From: Malacoraja senta
Lineage: Eukaryota
Length of the DNA stretch: 64,000 nt
Reading direction: 5' to 3'
NCBI GenBank assembly: GCA_038087875.1
Contig: CM075989.1
Location: 20,772,001 to 20,836,000 of the forward strand
Shown here: in pieces, positions 3,054 to 28,045 of the stretch
Layout: every line of letters begins with the position of its first letter
Position numbering within the stretch: position 1 is the first letter of the stretch
Position numbers and translations under genes: made by a program
The notes under the pieces: generated by a model
Seen by the model: the letters and a program-made list of their open reading frames with translations, nothing else
Told to the model about the DNA's origin: nothing
Databases searched by the model: none

Positions 3054-6000
3054 TCATATCAAGCTTTTCAAAATAAAAAGAATAAGAATGAACAAAGACA
3101 GTTAGAAGAACTTATTAGACAAATGGATATAGATAATGCTAAAGATCCATCAATAGATAAACATAATAAAATAATAATTTTGAAATTTAAATTAAATAAA
3201 TTATTATCTGCCAAACTTATAAGACTTTTTCAAATTACAAAACAAGAGCACTTTGAATTTGGGGATAAACCGCATAAACTTTTGGCTCACCAGCTAAAAA
3301 AACGAGAAAAGGAACATACTATACCAAAGATCAAATCAGATAAAGGGGAATTATTAACAACACCGAAGGATATTAATAAAAGATTTGCGCAATTTTATGA
3401 TAATTTGTATACATCTAAAACGACAATTGATTCCAATAATATCACAAAGTTTTTGGATAACTGTAATCTTCCAAAGTTAGAGCTGAAGGAACAAGAGGAA
3501 TTGGGTGCACAAATCTCAATTAAGGAATTAGAAGATACAATAAACTCACTAAAGAATGGAAAAACACCAGGCCCTGATGGATTTACTAATGAATTTTATA
3601 AAAGCTTTTATGATAAAATAATACCAAGATTACAAAAAATGTACCAATATGCTTATAAAAAACGAATACTACCTGATACATTAGCGGAATCAACGATTAC
3701 ACTAATACCTAAGAAAAACAAAGATTTAGAAGAACCTGGTTCATATAGAGCTATAGCATTGTTAAACACAGATCAAAAAATATTAGCGAAAACATTAGCT
3801 AGAAGATTAAGTAAATACATTAGTAAATTAATAAACCCAGATCAGACGGGGTTTATCCCTAAGAGATATTCATCTAACAATATGAGACGTCTACTCAACA
3901 TAATGCACTCACACAAATCTGAAGATCAAGAATTATCAATTATTTCGCTGGATGCTGAAAAAGCATTTGATCAAGTAGAATGGAATTATATGGATAAAGT
4001 ATTACAAGAATTCCAACTGGGGGAGAATTTTATTCTATGGATCGTTACTATATAACAAACCTACAGCTAGAATACTAACTGATAACATATTATCCTCGAA
4101 ATTCCAACTATCAAGGGGAAATAGACAAGGATGCTCATTATCACCACAGCTGTTTGCTCTCATTATTGAACCGCTAGCAGAAAAAATTAGAATACACCCT
4201 GATATCCATGGATATAATACTAAAGACTCATATAATAAAATATCTTTATACGCGGATGATATATTACTGTACATTACAAAACCTCAAATCACTATACCAA
4301 ATATATTAAATTTAATTGAAGACTTTGGATCTTTTTATGGATATAGAATAAATTGGAATAAAAGTGAAATTATGTCAATAAAACCGAAAGATTCAACACA
4401 TCTTTTAAAATTCCCTTTTAAAATAGCGACAGAAAAATTTAAATATTGGGAATCGAAATTACCAGAACATATCAAGGTATGTTCAGGGCAAATTTTGACC
4501 CCCTACTTAATAAATTAAACACACGAATTAAATTCTGGAAAACGTTCCCGATGTCTTTAATAGGCCGAATAAACGCAATAAAAATGATCTTTCTACCACA
4601 AATTTTATACCTATTTCAATCGATTCCTATATACTTACCAAAGAAGTTTAAAAAAAAACTCGACTCAGATATCACTAATTTTATATGGGACTATAAATCA
4701 CATAGAATACAAAAAACTCATCTGAATAAACCTAAAGTATTGGGGGGTTTAGCACTACCTAACTTTATGTATTATTATTGGTCAGTAAATATTAAAAATA
4801 TGATTCAACTGATGGATAACTCCGCCCAGCAAGTGGACTGGATTGTAATGGAGAAAGAGGATTGCTCCTCTGGAAACATTGGAGCGATCCTCCTTTCTCC
4901 AATGAAATTGAATAACATAAATTATAATAAGAACCCAATTATTCATAATACAATCCGAATTTGGAAACAAATAAAACAAAATTTAAAATTAAGAAATTTA
5001 TCACTTTTATTACCAATAGTTAATAGCCCTTCGTTTAATCCCTCTATTATAGATAAAGCTTTTACACATTGGGATAGACTAGGAATTAAAACGCTTGGTG
5101 ACTTGTATGAAACTGGAAAATTACTTTCATTTCAACAATTACAAATAAAATATAAACTCGGAAATAATCAATATTTTAAATATTTTCAAATATGCGACTA
5201 TTTGAAAAAATATACAAAAGATCATTATAATAACCCAGTAGATGTATTGGATGAGGCAATGCAGATAAAAGCTGAATCAGCAAACTTAATATCATATTTG
5301 TATAATATTATCTTAAATGTACAAATACCATCTACGGAGGGTATCAGAAGAGACTGGGAACAAGAGTTAGCTATTAAAATTTCAAAGGAAAGTTGGAATG
5401 AACACTTATTAAACATGCATATAAATGTTTGATTAATGTAAGACACACTTTAATACAATTACAAATTTTACATAGATTATATTATTCGAAAACTAAAATT
5501 CATAAAATTTTCCCAAATGTATCATCTATTTGTGATAAATGTCAATCCCAAGAAGCTACTATAGCGCACTCATTCGTTTTCTGTACAAAAATTCAAAAAT
5601 TTTGGAATGACATTTTTGAAATCTTTACAAAGTTATTTAAAATAAGACTGATACCCAAAGCAGAATGGATTATCTTCGGAATAACGGAAGATGGCCCAGA
5701 ACTAAATGTGTTTCAAAAGAAACTAATGGACTATGGGTTAATAACTGGAAAAAAGCTAATTCTAAAATTTTGGAAGAAGTCTCCAATACTAACTATAAAT
5801 ATGTGGACTTCAAATATGTTCGAAACATTACACCTAGAAGAGATAAGACTCCTCCTAGCAGGTAAACCAGATCACTTCCACCTGACGTGGTCTGCATTTA
5901 TAGAATTATTACAAATATAGGGTGCAAAAGTACTTAAAAAAAAATTGAGGTCAGGTAAGGGGGGATGCTAGTTGAAGAGTTGGTATGTCCCATTTACGTA

Positions 6001-13558: not shown

Positions 13559-14225
13559 ATAATTCAGCTACTTCAACTAACGAAAGTATATTATATTGGT
13601 ACAAGGATACAAAGTGCTGGAGTGTCTCTGTTCTCCAGAGATGCTGCCTGACTTACTGAGTTATTCCAGCACTTTGTGTCATTTTGTGTAAGCCAGCATC
13701 TGCAGTTCCTTGATTCTATATTACATTGGTGATGTGCAATATAAAGCCATATACAGGCACTCCCCGACCTATATAATAGACGACTTATGTAAGCAGGCAC
13801 CTACCTGTACCTTGGTACATGTGACAATTATAAACTAAATTAAAAATCAGACCATGCTATACATGAGTACAATCAAGCCAAACCCAAGCCCAGATGGTAG
13901 AACAAATAGAAAGATGCCGACTGTAGAATATAGTTCTCAGCATCATAGCATGACCGTACTGGAGAAAACGTCCAATGTCCAATGTCCAAGATGAGGTAGG
14001 TTGGAGAATTGGGACTGTACCCTCGATTATGGAAGGGCCATTCAAAAAGTCTGTTAACAGAGAAGAACAAGCAGTTCCTGAGTCTGGTAATGTGAGCTTT
14101 CAAGCTTCTGTGACTTCTGGTCAACAGGAGCGGGGAGAAGATGGATTGACCGGGGGTTTGGAAGGTCCTTGTTTGTGTTGGCTGCTTTCCAGAAGCAATG
14201 AGTCTTCTTCGAGTCCGTTGCAATC

Positions 14226-17200
14226 TCAGATGTCATTCTGCCAGTATCTGGCGCAGGTCACAGCTGGTCGAGTCGGTTCAGCCAGGTCCTGGGGGCTGCA
14301 CTGGGGGGGGGGGGCGTCGTCACACTCCAGTAGGTGGGACATTGTCTGTACTGCTCCACAGCTGCATGTGTCTTATGCCTGGTAGTTCCATGCTTTCATA
14401 AGTGCTTTACACCTCCCCTGCTCCACTCGCATTCTGTTGAGGGTCTTCCAGGTTGGCCATGGGAGGTCGTGCCCGCTGGTGAGGCATTCAGTCGGAGTGA
14501 TTCCTCTCTCCATCCAGTCGTGGGCTCGTGTGTTGAGCTGGTTCCATTCATCTTTCCAGATGTTGGTCCTTGCTGTTTCTTTGGTTGTCTGGAGAGGTGG
14601 GACTGTCTGCAAGAAACTGGCTCTGGATTTCAGTCGGGGTGGAGGTGCTGTGTGTCCGTGCAGGGGGTGCCTGGTATCGATCTCCTGTGCTCTCCGCTCG
14701 TCTTGGGCGATGATGGATCGTCTGATATGGGGGGGGGGGCAATACCAGCTAGGGCGTAGAGGCACGGGACTGGCGTTGTCTTTATGCATCCCGTGATAAT
14801 GCGGCAGGTGTCATTGAGTGCTGTGTCAACCAGTTTGGTGTGGTGGGAGCGGCTCCAGCTTGAGCAAGCGTATTCAGCTGTGGAGAAGCACAGGGCTAGG
14901 GCAGTTGCACGGATGGTTGGTGGATCAGCGCCCCACTTTGAGTTTACCAGTTTGCGCAGGATGTTGTTGCGAGTGTTTACCTTGGCTTTGGTGTTCTGAA
15001 GGTGGGTTTTGAAAGAGAGTGTCCTGTCGAGTGTGACTCCGAGGTACACGGGGTGGAAGTGGTTGGAAATCCCATGAGACGCTCAGTTGTTTTCCTGCAT
15101 CTCGATTTCTAAGATGGAAGCTGCATAGTTTAAGGATAAGGGGGAAATCCTTTAAGACCGAGATGAGGAAAAACGTTTTCACACAGAGAGTGGTGAATCT
15201 CTGGAACTCTCTGCCACAGAGGGTAGTTGAGGCCAGTTCATTGGCTATATTTAAGAGGGAGTTAGATGTGGCCCTTGTGGCTAAAGGGATCAGGGGGTAT
15301 GGAGAGAAGGCAGGTACGGGATACTGAGTTGGATGATCAGCCATGATCATATTGAATGGCGGTGCAGGCTCGAAGGGCCGAATGGCCTACTCCTGCACCT
15401 ATTTTCTATGTATCTATAGTTGGGTTTTTGATGGGTTGGGTTTCAGGTGGTTGTTATTGTAGTAGGTTGTCATCTCTTGGAGGGTGCTTTCCAGGACAGG
15501 CTCAATCTTCTGGAAGTTCTCCTGTTGGGTGGTGATGCAGAGGTCATCAGCATAGATGAAGCGGCGGCATTGTGGGGGAAGTGGTTGGTCATTGGTGTAG
15601 ATGTTGAAGAGGAGGGGGGCCAGTACGCTGCCTTGTGGTAGGCCATTCTTTTGGGCTTTCCATTTGCTCTTCTTGTCGTTTAGTTGGACGAAGAAGCGCC
15701 TGTTGTTTAGAAGGCTTTTGATGACTTGGCACAGGTCGAGGTCACCAGTCATGTCAAAAAGTTTCCTGATCATGGTTCGGTGCTGGACAGTGTCGTAAGC
15801 AGCGGTGAGGTCTATGAAAGCTGCTCCGGTGATGAGTTTGCACTCGAAACCGTCCTCAATGTGTTGGGTGAGGTTCAGTAGCTGCCCGGCACAGGAGCGG
15901 CCAGGGCGGAAACCACCTTGATCTTTAGTAAGCTTTGAGTCTATAAGTGGCATAAGGCGTTGGAGTAGTAGCCTCTCGTAGAGATTGTAGGTGATGCAGA
16001 GGAGGGAAATAGGTCTGTAGCTCTTTGGGGATGATGGGTCCTTTCCAGGTTTTGGAATTGCGACAGTCTTGGCCTTTCTCCATACAGGTGGGGTTGTTTT
16101 CTGTGCCATGCATGAGTTCAGCATTGCTAGGAGCCAGATCTTTGCTTTAGGTCCAAGGTGCTGTATCATTTCCGTCAGTACATCATCGATTCCTGCTGCT
16201 TTCCCAGGCTTCAGCATGCTCATTGCAGCTTCGAGGTCTTCTAGGTCGAAGGGCTTGGTGAGAGCGCTGGCTGGTTGCAGGCCGTCTGTTACCGCTGTCC
16301 GGCGGTATTCTCCTGTGGGTCTGCGGCGGTTTTGGCTACGACCGTTTGCCACCAGCTGTGCTGCAACTGAGTTTGCTGTGACTGTTGTGAGTGTGGGCGG
16401 TGTGGTATGGTCTTCGCCGAGGCGGCGGATTGTGGCCCATGCCTTCCTGCTGTTATTGGTCATGTCGGTGTTTTCTATCAACTCCTTCCAGACTTGCCTT
16501 CGGTCCTCCCCGACTGTGTTCAACAGGATCTCTCCGAGTTCCATGGTGGTGGAGGAGAAAGGGTCCTCGTGGTATGTCCTGTGGTAGGCTTTCAGTAGAT
16601 CGCTGGATGTTTCCGACAGCCCGGGGATGTACTCAGTCTGGCATCCTCTTGGTATATGTCGCCTGGCTGACCTTTTCAACAGTTCTATGAACATGGTAGA
16701 GTTGTTGGGGTGTGATGGAATGCTGGGGATGGAGTCTTCGATCTCCTGTTGGAATGACAGACAGTCGGCCTTCCGCAGATTGAACCTTCTGCGGAAGGGG
16801 ACGGTTGTTGCTTGGAGAGCGGATCGGATGGTTATGGTAATTGGCCGGTGTTGCGTATGGGGGATAGGGTCCAGGACCTCTTTCACAGCTCTGGGTGATA
16901 GTTCGCTGCTCACACAAACAAGGTCTGGGTTATATCCTCGTTTCCATCTGGCACCGTGAAAAGATTTTGGCAGTTTGGCGTCATGGATCAGGGTCAGGTG
17001 TTTCGACTCGAGCCAGGTTTCGACTTCATCTCCATCTTGATTGTTCACTTCATAGCCCCACAATGAGCTATGGGCATTGAAGTCCCCAATGCTAATGTGG
17101 TATTTCCTCTTGCATCTGTCTGGCCGTTCAGAGTGGAGGAACGGACTTTGGGGGGGGGGTTTATACACTGATGTGACAGAGATGTTCGGGAGGGCGGCTG

Positions 17201-17506
17201 TGATGGTCTCCATTTGCCCTTCGGTGGTGTGGGTGCAGACCTCTTCGATCGCGAGGTTTGGTCTGCTGAATACAGCTGACCCATACTGTCTGTGTCGGAT
17301 CTCGGCCACCAGCTTCATTCCAGGGATGGCTGGTCGGTGTTGTGTAGGGCCGATGTGGGTTCCTGCATGCACACTAAGTCGAAGCGTTTGGCCGCTGTCG
17401 CTAGTATGTCTGCCTTGCATCTGGAGAAGCCTTCAATATTGATTGAGGCGATTGACAGTGCAGGCCCCGAGGAGGGCGAGTGTCTGTGGCGCTTCGGCAT
17501 CGTCAT
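14226..17506 (-). pseudogene. Disrupted endonuclease/reverse transcriptase ORF of the Vingi-type element
   Basis: APE motifs SINIEG, CMQE, GDFNAH, YNPDL and TQHRP; RT motifs YRPISLL, DLTAAYD, GLPQGSVLAP, YADD and YLGVTLD; C-terminal CSC..H..C. Broken by a frameshift near 17360, the CR1 insertion at 15131-15415, a frameshift in the G-run near 14730 and a stop at 14373-14375. Confidence 0.93.
15131..15415 (+). mobile_element. Young CR1 (HER1-like) 3' fragment nested in the Vingi RT region
   Basis: Encodes LRIRG..F.TEMR...FTQRVVNLWNSLP. Duplication atagtt at 15125-15130 and 15416-15421. Removing it restores KTQLCSFHLRNR. Confidence 0.9.
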
Positions 17507-17529
17507 CTAATAGATTGCTTGGGTAGGTG

Positions 17530-17623
17530 CACAGATAATGGCCTACTGGTGGTAATAATATCAAATTATACCATTCAGTGTTTCCCAGGCTGCACCACGG
17601 GAAGGTTTCTGTATTAGCAGCCC
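17530..17623 (-). ncRNA. HDV-like self-cleaving ribozyme at the 5' end of the Vingi-type LINE
   Basis: Minus strand: P1 GGGCUGC/GCAGCCU (G1-U wobble), P3 ACC/GGU, L3 UUCCCGU, GG available for P1.1, P4 hairpin ACUG..UGGUAUAAU/AUUAUUACCA..CAGU, P2 UACAGA/UCUGUG. G1 coincides with the TSD-defined element boundary. J4/2 is atypical (GGCCAUUA). Confidence 0.8.
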
Positions 17624-17734
17624 AAGCAATGAGTAGATGGCGTCGATGTTGGGAAATCTGGTCTGTGTGATACATCCACAACTCTCTGCGGTTCCTTGCA
17701 ATCTTGCGCAGAACTGTTCCCAGGCCAAGCAACG

Positions 17735-24204: not shown

Positions 24205-24399
24205 GATGGCCCCATAGCAGAAGCGTCCACGTCGCGGGGCTGGAAACTGGAAGTATCCTGAGCTAATTCTGCTACCCACTTCATCCATGGTGACAAGTGA
24301 TGGCTCCCACTGATTGTCGCCGGAAGCTTGTGTCCTTTTCAGGACGGACGATGACAGCGAGGTCAACATTTGTAGCAAGATGGACACGAAAAGAAGAAG
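24205..24399 (+). mobile_element. Short non-autonomous retroelement (~190 nt) with HDV-like ribozyme head and Vingi-like tail, copy 2
   Basis: TSD atttgtgcat (24195-24204 and 24400-24409). Tail ggacacgaaaagaagaag. Homologous to 13369-13558 in the opposite orientation. No tRNA A/B boxes seen. Confidence 0.88.
24208..24274 (+). ncRNA. CPEB3/HDV-like ribozyme, fold apparently intact
   Basis: GGCCCC A UAGCAGAA GCG UCCACGU CGC GGGGCU GG AAACUGGAAGUAUCCUGAG CUAA UUCUGCUA. P1 is 6 bp with G1-U, P2 is a perfect 8 bp, P3 is 3 bp, P1.1 is CC/GG, and J4/2 is CUAA with the putative catalytic C at 24263. Confidence 0.88.
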
Positions 24400-27827: not shown

Positions 27828-27991
27828 TTACATTTCACCCCTCTCATGTTAAAGCTATGCCCTCTGGCCTTCTTCTTATCAAGTCCACACACAAGATTAG
27901 AAGTTGTTCAGCCAGAGCTGAACACACATCTCAGCATCTGCATACAATGGTGTCTGTCTTGTTGCTTCTTGTGCTTCTTGTGCGTGGTGGT

Positions 27992-28045
27992 GGAAAGATT
28001 GGTGGAAACAAGGGCCGCGACGTGAACGCTCTTTCCTTGACCCCA
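27992..28045 (-). ncRNA. Minimal (P4-less) CPEB3/HDV-like ribozyme fold
   Basis: Minus strand: (U)GGGGUC AA GGAAAGA GCG UUCACGU CGC GGCCCUU GU UUCCA CCAA UCUUUCC. P2 is a perfect 7 bp, P3 is GCG/CGC and L3 is UUCACGU. Followed by the tail acgcacaagaagcacaagaagcaacaaga to 27957. Confidence 0.78.

Follow-up and report, generated by a model that had tools for sequence, protein, structure and literature searches.

The LINE on the minus strand of the window (the whole stretch of 64,000 nucleotides analysed here) begins with a double pseudoknot of the HDV type, formed by its first 95 bases, and this fold very probably freed the element's RNA from a read-through transcript and thereby fixed the 5' end of complete copies. 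The element runs from 17623 to 14204 and is of a 3.1-kb single-ORF type with an endonuclease and an RT. According to the mechanism that we propose, a master copy would be transcribed from upstream inside a longer transcript, the C at 17541 would act as the general acid in a cleavage 5' of G1, and the element's RT would copy the RNA up to the cleaved end, so that every complete copy would begin at the cleavage position and nothing from further upstream would be passed on. Joining of the second strand would leave a few bases of junction noise, and the window copy would afterwards have gained four core changes and the breaks in its ORF. The case for a ribozyme draws its strength from the match with the TSD boundary, from the family copies and from covariation, whereas the Rfam score is weak.

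The fold begins exactly at the TSD-defined 5' end, as the first-pass annotation of this DNA had proposed: 17623 directly follows the 11-bp TSD, which ends where element base 1 begins (Table 1). That base is also, as proposed, the G of a 7-bp P1 closed by a G-U pair; 7 of 7 pairs were found, in agreement with the 6-7 bp that P1 of HDV-like ribozymes spans from the cleavage site, in most cases with G.U as its first pair. P3 of 3 bp encloses a 7-nt L3, such loops typically having 7-8 nt and holding U...C-G. The elements given by the annotation in the order P3/L3, GG, P4 and P2 are all present, but the 3' strand of P1 comes after P3, and only then the GG. P1.1 consists of two C-G pairs in the family and of C-G and U.G in the window copy, where 17602 is U versus C in the family majority and the pairing is thus weakened. 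P2 displays 8 pairs and a bulge in the family and 7 pairs and one bulged A here, at least 5 bp being expected of the class. J4/2 of the family (C-C-A-A) follows the C-N-R-A pattern, from which the window copy (C-C-A-U) misses the final A; the descriptor given in PMC6326823 is C-R-R-A, and a pyrimidine at the second position also recurs in related heads.

Table 1. Features of the LINE, its 5' fold and two short elements, in window coordinates.
Feature	Position	Strand	Remarks
5' TSD copy	17624..17634	-	11 bp
HDV-like ribozyme fold	17529..17623	-	predicted cleavage between 17624 and 17623
P1 5' strand	17617..17623	-	G1 pairs with U
P2 5' strand	17607..17614	-	
P3-L3-P3	17594..17606	-	ACC/GGU around 7-nt L3 UUCCCGU
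P1 3' strand	17587..17593	-	
GG	17585..17586	-	partner of L3 in P1.1
P4 region	17542..17584	-	43 nt, predicted hairpin (-8.4 kcal/mol)
J4/2	17538..17541	-	C-C-A-U; 17541 predicted as the catalytic C; U at 17538 versus A in the family
P2 3' strand	17529..17537	-	one bulged A; private changes at 17530 and 17529
Single ORF	14226..17506	-	AP endonuclease, RT, no RNase H; broken here by frameshifts and an insertion
Repeat within the RT region	15131..15415	-	~285 bp; missing from the other copies examined
3' UTR	14204..14225	-	22 nt, terminal GAAGAAG tail
3' TSD copy	14193..14203	-	11 bp
Family A short element	24208..24399	+	CPEB3-like head, ORF start and 3' end of sister LINE V3 (L226); 10-bp TSD
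Family B short element	27869..28044	-	minimal head without P4; 11-bp TSD; tail like that of the window LINE

Four core changes are private to the window copy, namely at 17602 (P1.1), 17538 (the equivalent of A78) and 17530-17529 (P2). A77 and A78 make up the A-minor motif by which the catalytic C is held in place (PMC1874588), so that loss of the A78 equivalent likely impairs this copy. The window copy retains the catalytic C, but its ORF is broken and its core bears these four changes; we read it as the decayed version of a ribozyme that is likely active in the family, and as probably slow or dead itself. The earlier suspicion that a departing J4/2 left this copy inactive is backed as far as impairment goes by the four changes; the catalytic C is present, and the altered base is the A78 equivalent.

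The description of the element as full-length holds for its two ends, both of which are present, but not for the ORF, which carries a frameshift near 17360, the 285-bp insertion 15415-15131 and additional indels. The ATG previously placed at 17506, about 24 nt downstream of the fold, was found there, ~23 nt past P2 and immediately preceded by an in-frame stop, while an upstream ATG at 17574 within P4 opens a frame of two codons. No 2A-like motif was seen at the ORF start by eye. The inserted repeat is flanked by a 6-bp duplication, and a related repeat lies at a different position in copy L020. The window also contains fragments of an unrelated RT-encoding LINE (3123-5432, plus strand), with 29% identity to the RT of this element.

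A search of the genome from which the window derives (1.94 Gb) with the 5' region of the element gave at least 18 matches, two pairs of loci sharing their flanks and leaving 16 distinct insertions. The element starts at base 1-3 in 11 of the 18 matches (10 distinct flanks), at base 6 in two and further in for five. No sequence 5' of element base 1 is shared among these genomic matches; full-length copies reaching further 5', which had been named as a possible objection to the proposal, do not occur among them. The other point raised beforehand, the consensus of J4/2, was settled in favour of the catalytic C: the canonical C-C-A-A stands in 15 of the 17 loci covering it and in 4/4 sequencing runs, one locus being without the C and the window copy without the last A. 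Several copies display clean TSDs of 11-12 bp and the GAAGAAG tail, and eight long copies diverge by only 0.7-1.6% from their own majority (element length 3133 bp), which indicates a young family.

Over half of the sampled words of the element were recovered from 14 public sequencing runs (five organisms and one unlabelled sample). In all four runs examined, from four organisms, the family letters stand at 17538, 17530 and 17529 and the frameshift near 17360 is absent, and in three of these the other differences of the 5' UTR are confined to the P4 loop or lie downstream of P2. Contig matches end at 17622-17623 in five contigs of one run and at 17624 and 17620 in one contig each of two other runs. 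The share of sampled words in six RNA runs was 0.07-0.11, a value that carries no weight as evidence.

The first bases of the copies are variable: base 1 is A in four copies, and 8/10 copies starting at base 1-2 are changed somewhere in bases 1-5. This noise resembles the junction variability of R2 elements, which cut at their own 5' end and reveal similarly variable junctions (PMC3774820). The four copies with A instead of G at base 1 (L002, L005, L007, L008), in which P1 would close by A-U, include two with clean TSDs; a separate A1 subfamily found no support, as none of the other variants within the first 1100 bases is common to all four. Two further TSD-flanked copies, L016 and L018, join an inverted 5' piece (element bases 119 down to 3, or to 46) to the final 545 bases, the inverted stretch starting at the start codon in each case. 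The structure looks like twin priming, and the extension of one piece to base 3 agrees with a template whose end lay near base 1. Among the V1 copies, the core (element bases 6-39 and 83-96) showed 13/480 substitutions, compared with 112/9782 in the ORF (p 0.008) and 1/430 in P4 (p 0.002); without CpG sites, core and ORF had 9/460 and 86/8943 (p 0.05). This excess, which is small and was found post hoc, possibly reflects a survivor bias against active ribozymes.

A loose descriptor matched 9 times in the window and 0-7 times in 8 shuffles, which is not significant, and Rfam model HDV_ribozyme (RF00094) scored these bases weakly, with 27.2 bits (E 0.074) against a gathering threshold of 50 bits. 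The CPEB3_ribozyme model (RF00622, gathering 35 bits) gave no match at 17.6 kb nor in copies L019 and L023. When the window copy was folded together with its flanks, the minimum-energy structure did not contain the pseudoknot, which the method is unable to model. On the loose descriptor and the E value alone, the fold might be taken for a chance match in a 5' UTR, yet we consider this practically untenable, given the exact coincidence with the TSD, the rarity of matches to a tight descriptor and the covariation across families whose RTs are only ~35-50% identical. The tight descriptor with relaxed J4/2 matched the window only at 17623(-) and 24208(+), and 4 matches occurred in 60 whole-window shuffles.

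Related heads were collected from two sources. A search of the same genome with the Anolis endonuclease domain uncovered more families with heads of their own, V2 (L176-L186), V3 (L183), V4 (L192, L196), V5b (L217) and V6 (L220), the last having a P3/L3 identical to that of the window family and a different P1 and P2; several other families fetched from this genome gave no descriptor match. In metagenome contigs, the fold was found upstream of related ORFs at 6 of 23 testable loci (three of them representing one element; 4 further loci were too short of flank), as opposed to 4/460 shuffles and 2/23 reverse strands. The remaining 17/23 loci had no descriptor match; on inspection by eye, two of them have a fold that deviates at one point, and several others have been lost to decay or truncation. 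The V4 heads have a P3 of GCC/GGC, but the position immediately preceding P2, where the catalytic C is expected, holds A in both L192 and L196. L176 and L179, with the longest open frames of V2 (1008 and 1014 aa), carry several tandem head repeats of ~26 nt between two GATC sites, probably the result of template jumping at the 5' end.

An alignment of 13 heads from related families and loci revealed pairing in 94.8% of cells, a percentage inflated by the selection of heads for their fit, two of those from the metagenome having been included by eye, while slid controls all lay at 36-52%. Double-sided changes were counted in 34 cells, a number reached in 0/500 shuffles, and they affect 9/12 pairs, including 6/7 of P1; the outer P1.1 pair is non-standard in 6/13 heads. 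Unless the alignment is wrong, these changes and the metagenome controls refute a chance match.

The fold is also carried by short elements. The two matches of the Rfam CPEB3 model in the window are the heads of a family A and a family B element of ~190 and ~175 bases, both with a 6-bp P1 and GAAGAAG tails. A first look gave 2064 candidates for family A and 1708 for family B, from which 40 per family were scored and 30 per family fetched. In families A and B, every distinct flank that contained the anchor (27 of 27) starts with the P1 bases, many of them directly after the TSD. The exact pattern of a guessed parent of family A had no match, and its V3 parent came from the protein search; a parent of family B was not found. 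Immediately 5' of the head, T stands in 23/27 distinct flanks of family A and in 18/27 of family B. U at -1 is described as the fastest context of the HDV ribozyme (PMC1874588); an insertion preference could account for the T equally well.

These derivatives bear on what the head is for. It might mainly be an internal promoter, or a protective 5' module bound by the RT, base 1 then being the transcription start; elements of head and tail only have been amplified to thousands of candidates, the head of L1Tc is both promoter and ribozyme (PMC3383444), and the R2 fold confers cap-like protection (PMC13708176). Such a main role is very unlikely in our view, because stem sequences turn over with compensation whereas the catalytic C, L3 and J4/2 are retained, a pattern more in keeping with catalysis than with a promoter in the DNA; moreover, a promoter or module role and cleavage are not mutually exclusive. 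That the chief job of the fold would be to start translation on an uncapped RNA, with cleavage secondary, we regard as very unlikely. The closeness of the ATG to P2 (~23 nt) and the in-frame stop right before it would suit such a function, as would the fact that a cleaved RNA has no cap, and Ruminski 2011 is said to propose a translation role in the title of the paper. Against this, an intact core is kept in non-coding derivatives, the distance from head to ORF is variable (117 nt here, ~128-193 nt as projected elsewhere), and there is the upstream ATG in P4. We prefer self-cleavage as the primary function, with which a promoter or translation role may coexist.

Concerning its classification, the element had been called Vingi-type. 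In PMC13708176, Vingi elements are described as compact, as sister to Ingi and as lacking RNase H, and the clade, with Vingi-1_Acar, Vingi-2_Gav and Vingi-1_EE, shares with our family a compact single ORF, APE and RT, no RNase H and a sister position to RNase-H-bearing elements (PMC13708176). Copy L023 has an open frame of 986 aa (L023:621-3578) with Pfam domains Exo_endo_phos_2 and RVT_1, a compact ORF as in Vingi. A Pfam scan at E 0.1 found no RNase H domain, in line with Vingi and not with Ingi, which has RNase H after the RT. The nearest proteins, from eel and chub, are 89% identical, while other matches listed, including an Anolis family, show 41-51%; eel relatives are labelled 'ribonuclease H' in UniRef, the Pfam domains listed for the representative being without RNase H. 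Provided that the host is not a teleost, the gap between 89% here and near 50% among the other relatives listed points to horizontal transfer; the repeats of the host genome resemble SINEs of cartilaginous fishes. The Anolis family, with ORFs of 982 aa, falls inside the same clade with support 99 (quick IQ-TREE, no bootstrap); its protein we take to be Vingi-1_Acar. The nearest longer relatives of intact architecture do have RNase H and reveal ~33% identity. In a FastTree analysis, a branch with support 100 (no bootstrap) lies between 19 compact elements and 16 relatives that bear RNase H, 'no RNase H' being assumed from ORF size for nine DNA-derived rows and no row being named Vingi, Ingi or RTE. 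The compact ORF, the missing RNase H and the split in the tree match the published description, and the earlier label thus stands as probable, on architecture and on an RT tree without any sequence named Vingi. An indirect tie is given by the sister heads, which match the printed 5' end of Vingi-2_Gav.

HDV-like heads at the 5' end are known in R2, R4, R1, RTE, LOA and Ingi, a list of six clades that does not include Vingi (PMC5786205). Neither a published 5' ribozyme for Vingi nor a published link between CPEB3 and Vingi was found in the literature, a provisional result, with founding papers, Repbase, patents and preprint supplements outside the search. Among the closest known systems are L1TcRz and Pr77 of L1Tc/ingi in trypanosomes, where an HDV fold likewise opens an APE-type LINE with a single ORF (PMC3185411, PMC4035085), in a sister clade that also has short non-autonomous derivatives (PMC5786205). 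In contrast to these, the window family has no RNase H and lives in an animal host. R2 is similar in its cleavage at the 5' junction, its variable junctions and a P1 of 6-7 bp, and R2 SIDEs are derivatives made of ribozyme and 3' UTR (PMC3774820); R2, however, is of the RLE type with 28S rDNA as its specific target, while ours is a dispersed APE element with TSDs of 9-13 bp.

The mammalian CPEB3 ribozyme (RF00622) has the same fold. It is a single fixed intronic copy, unlike the window head, whose P1, P2 and P3 sequences are different and whose score misses the threshold, making it a more distant relative. The sister heads are much closer: RF00622 scores were 45-64 bits for seven V2 heads, 42.8 for a family A copy and 55.6 for metagenome locus L106, which by our own count agrees with the Rfam CPEB3 consensus at 35/38 of the first positions. 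In the printed supplement of PMC5786205, bases 2-74 of Vingi-2_Gav match this consensus at 52/54 positions outside upper P4 (own count), and all 14 P4 stem bases of the alligator element SINE2-1_AMi match it as well; no remark on the likeness of either to CPEB3 was found in the portions of that paper covered here. The sister scores of up to 64 bits and the 52/54 of Vingi-2_Gav make the CPEB3 ribozyme likely a domesticated Vingi head. Convergence on active-site sequence has been discussed for R2, and the motif is short, which speaks against descent; identity in J1/2, P2 and P4 speaks for it. All told, we think it rather likely that a self-cleaving HDV-type ribozyme at the 5' end is a clade-wide trait of Vingi LINEs and their miniatures and that, at the same time, the CPEB3 ribozyme is such a head, domesticated in intron 2 of CPEB3 before the split of marsupials and placentals.

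RNA tools for gene insertion are being developed from Vingi elements, and the native 5' UTR is 'unusually' retained in one such platform (PMC13708176). If the element used there has a self-cleaving head, this would directly affect the behaviour of the tool RNAs. The family described here extends to Vingi the set of LINE clades for which a 5' ribozyme is predicted, and it supplies natural active-like as well as decayed variants of the head. The wider value lies in the clade-wide pattern of heads and in a testable origin of the CPEB3 ribozyme, for whose evolution Vingi heads, if this origin is true, would be the missing outgroup.
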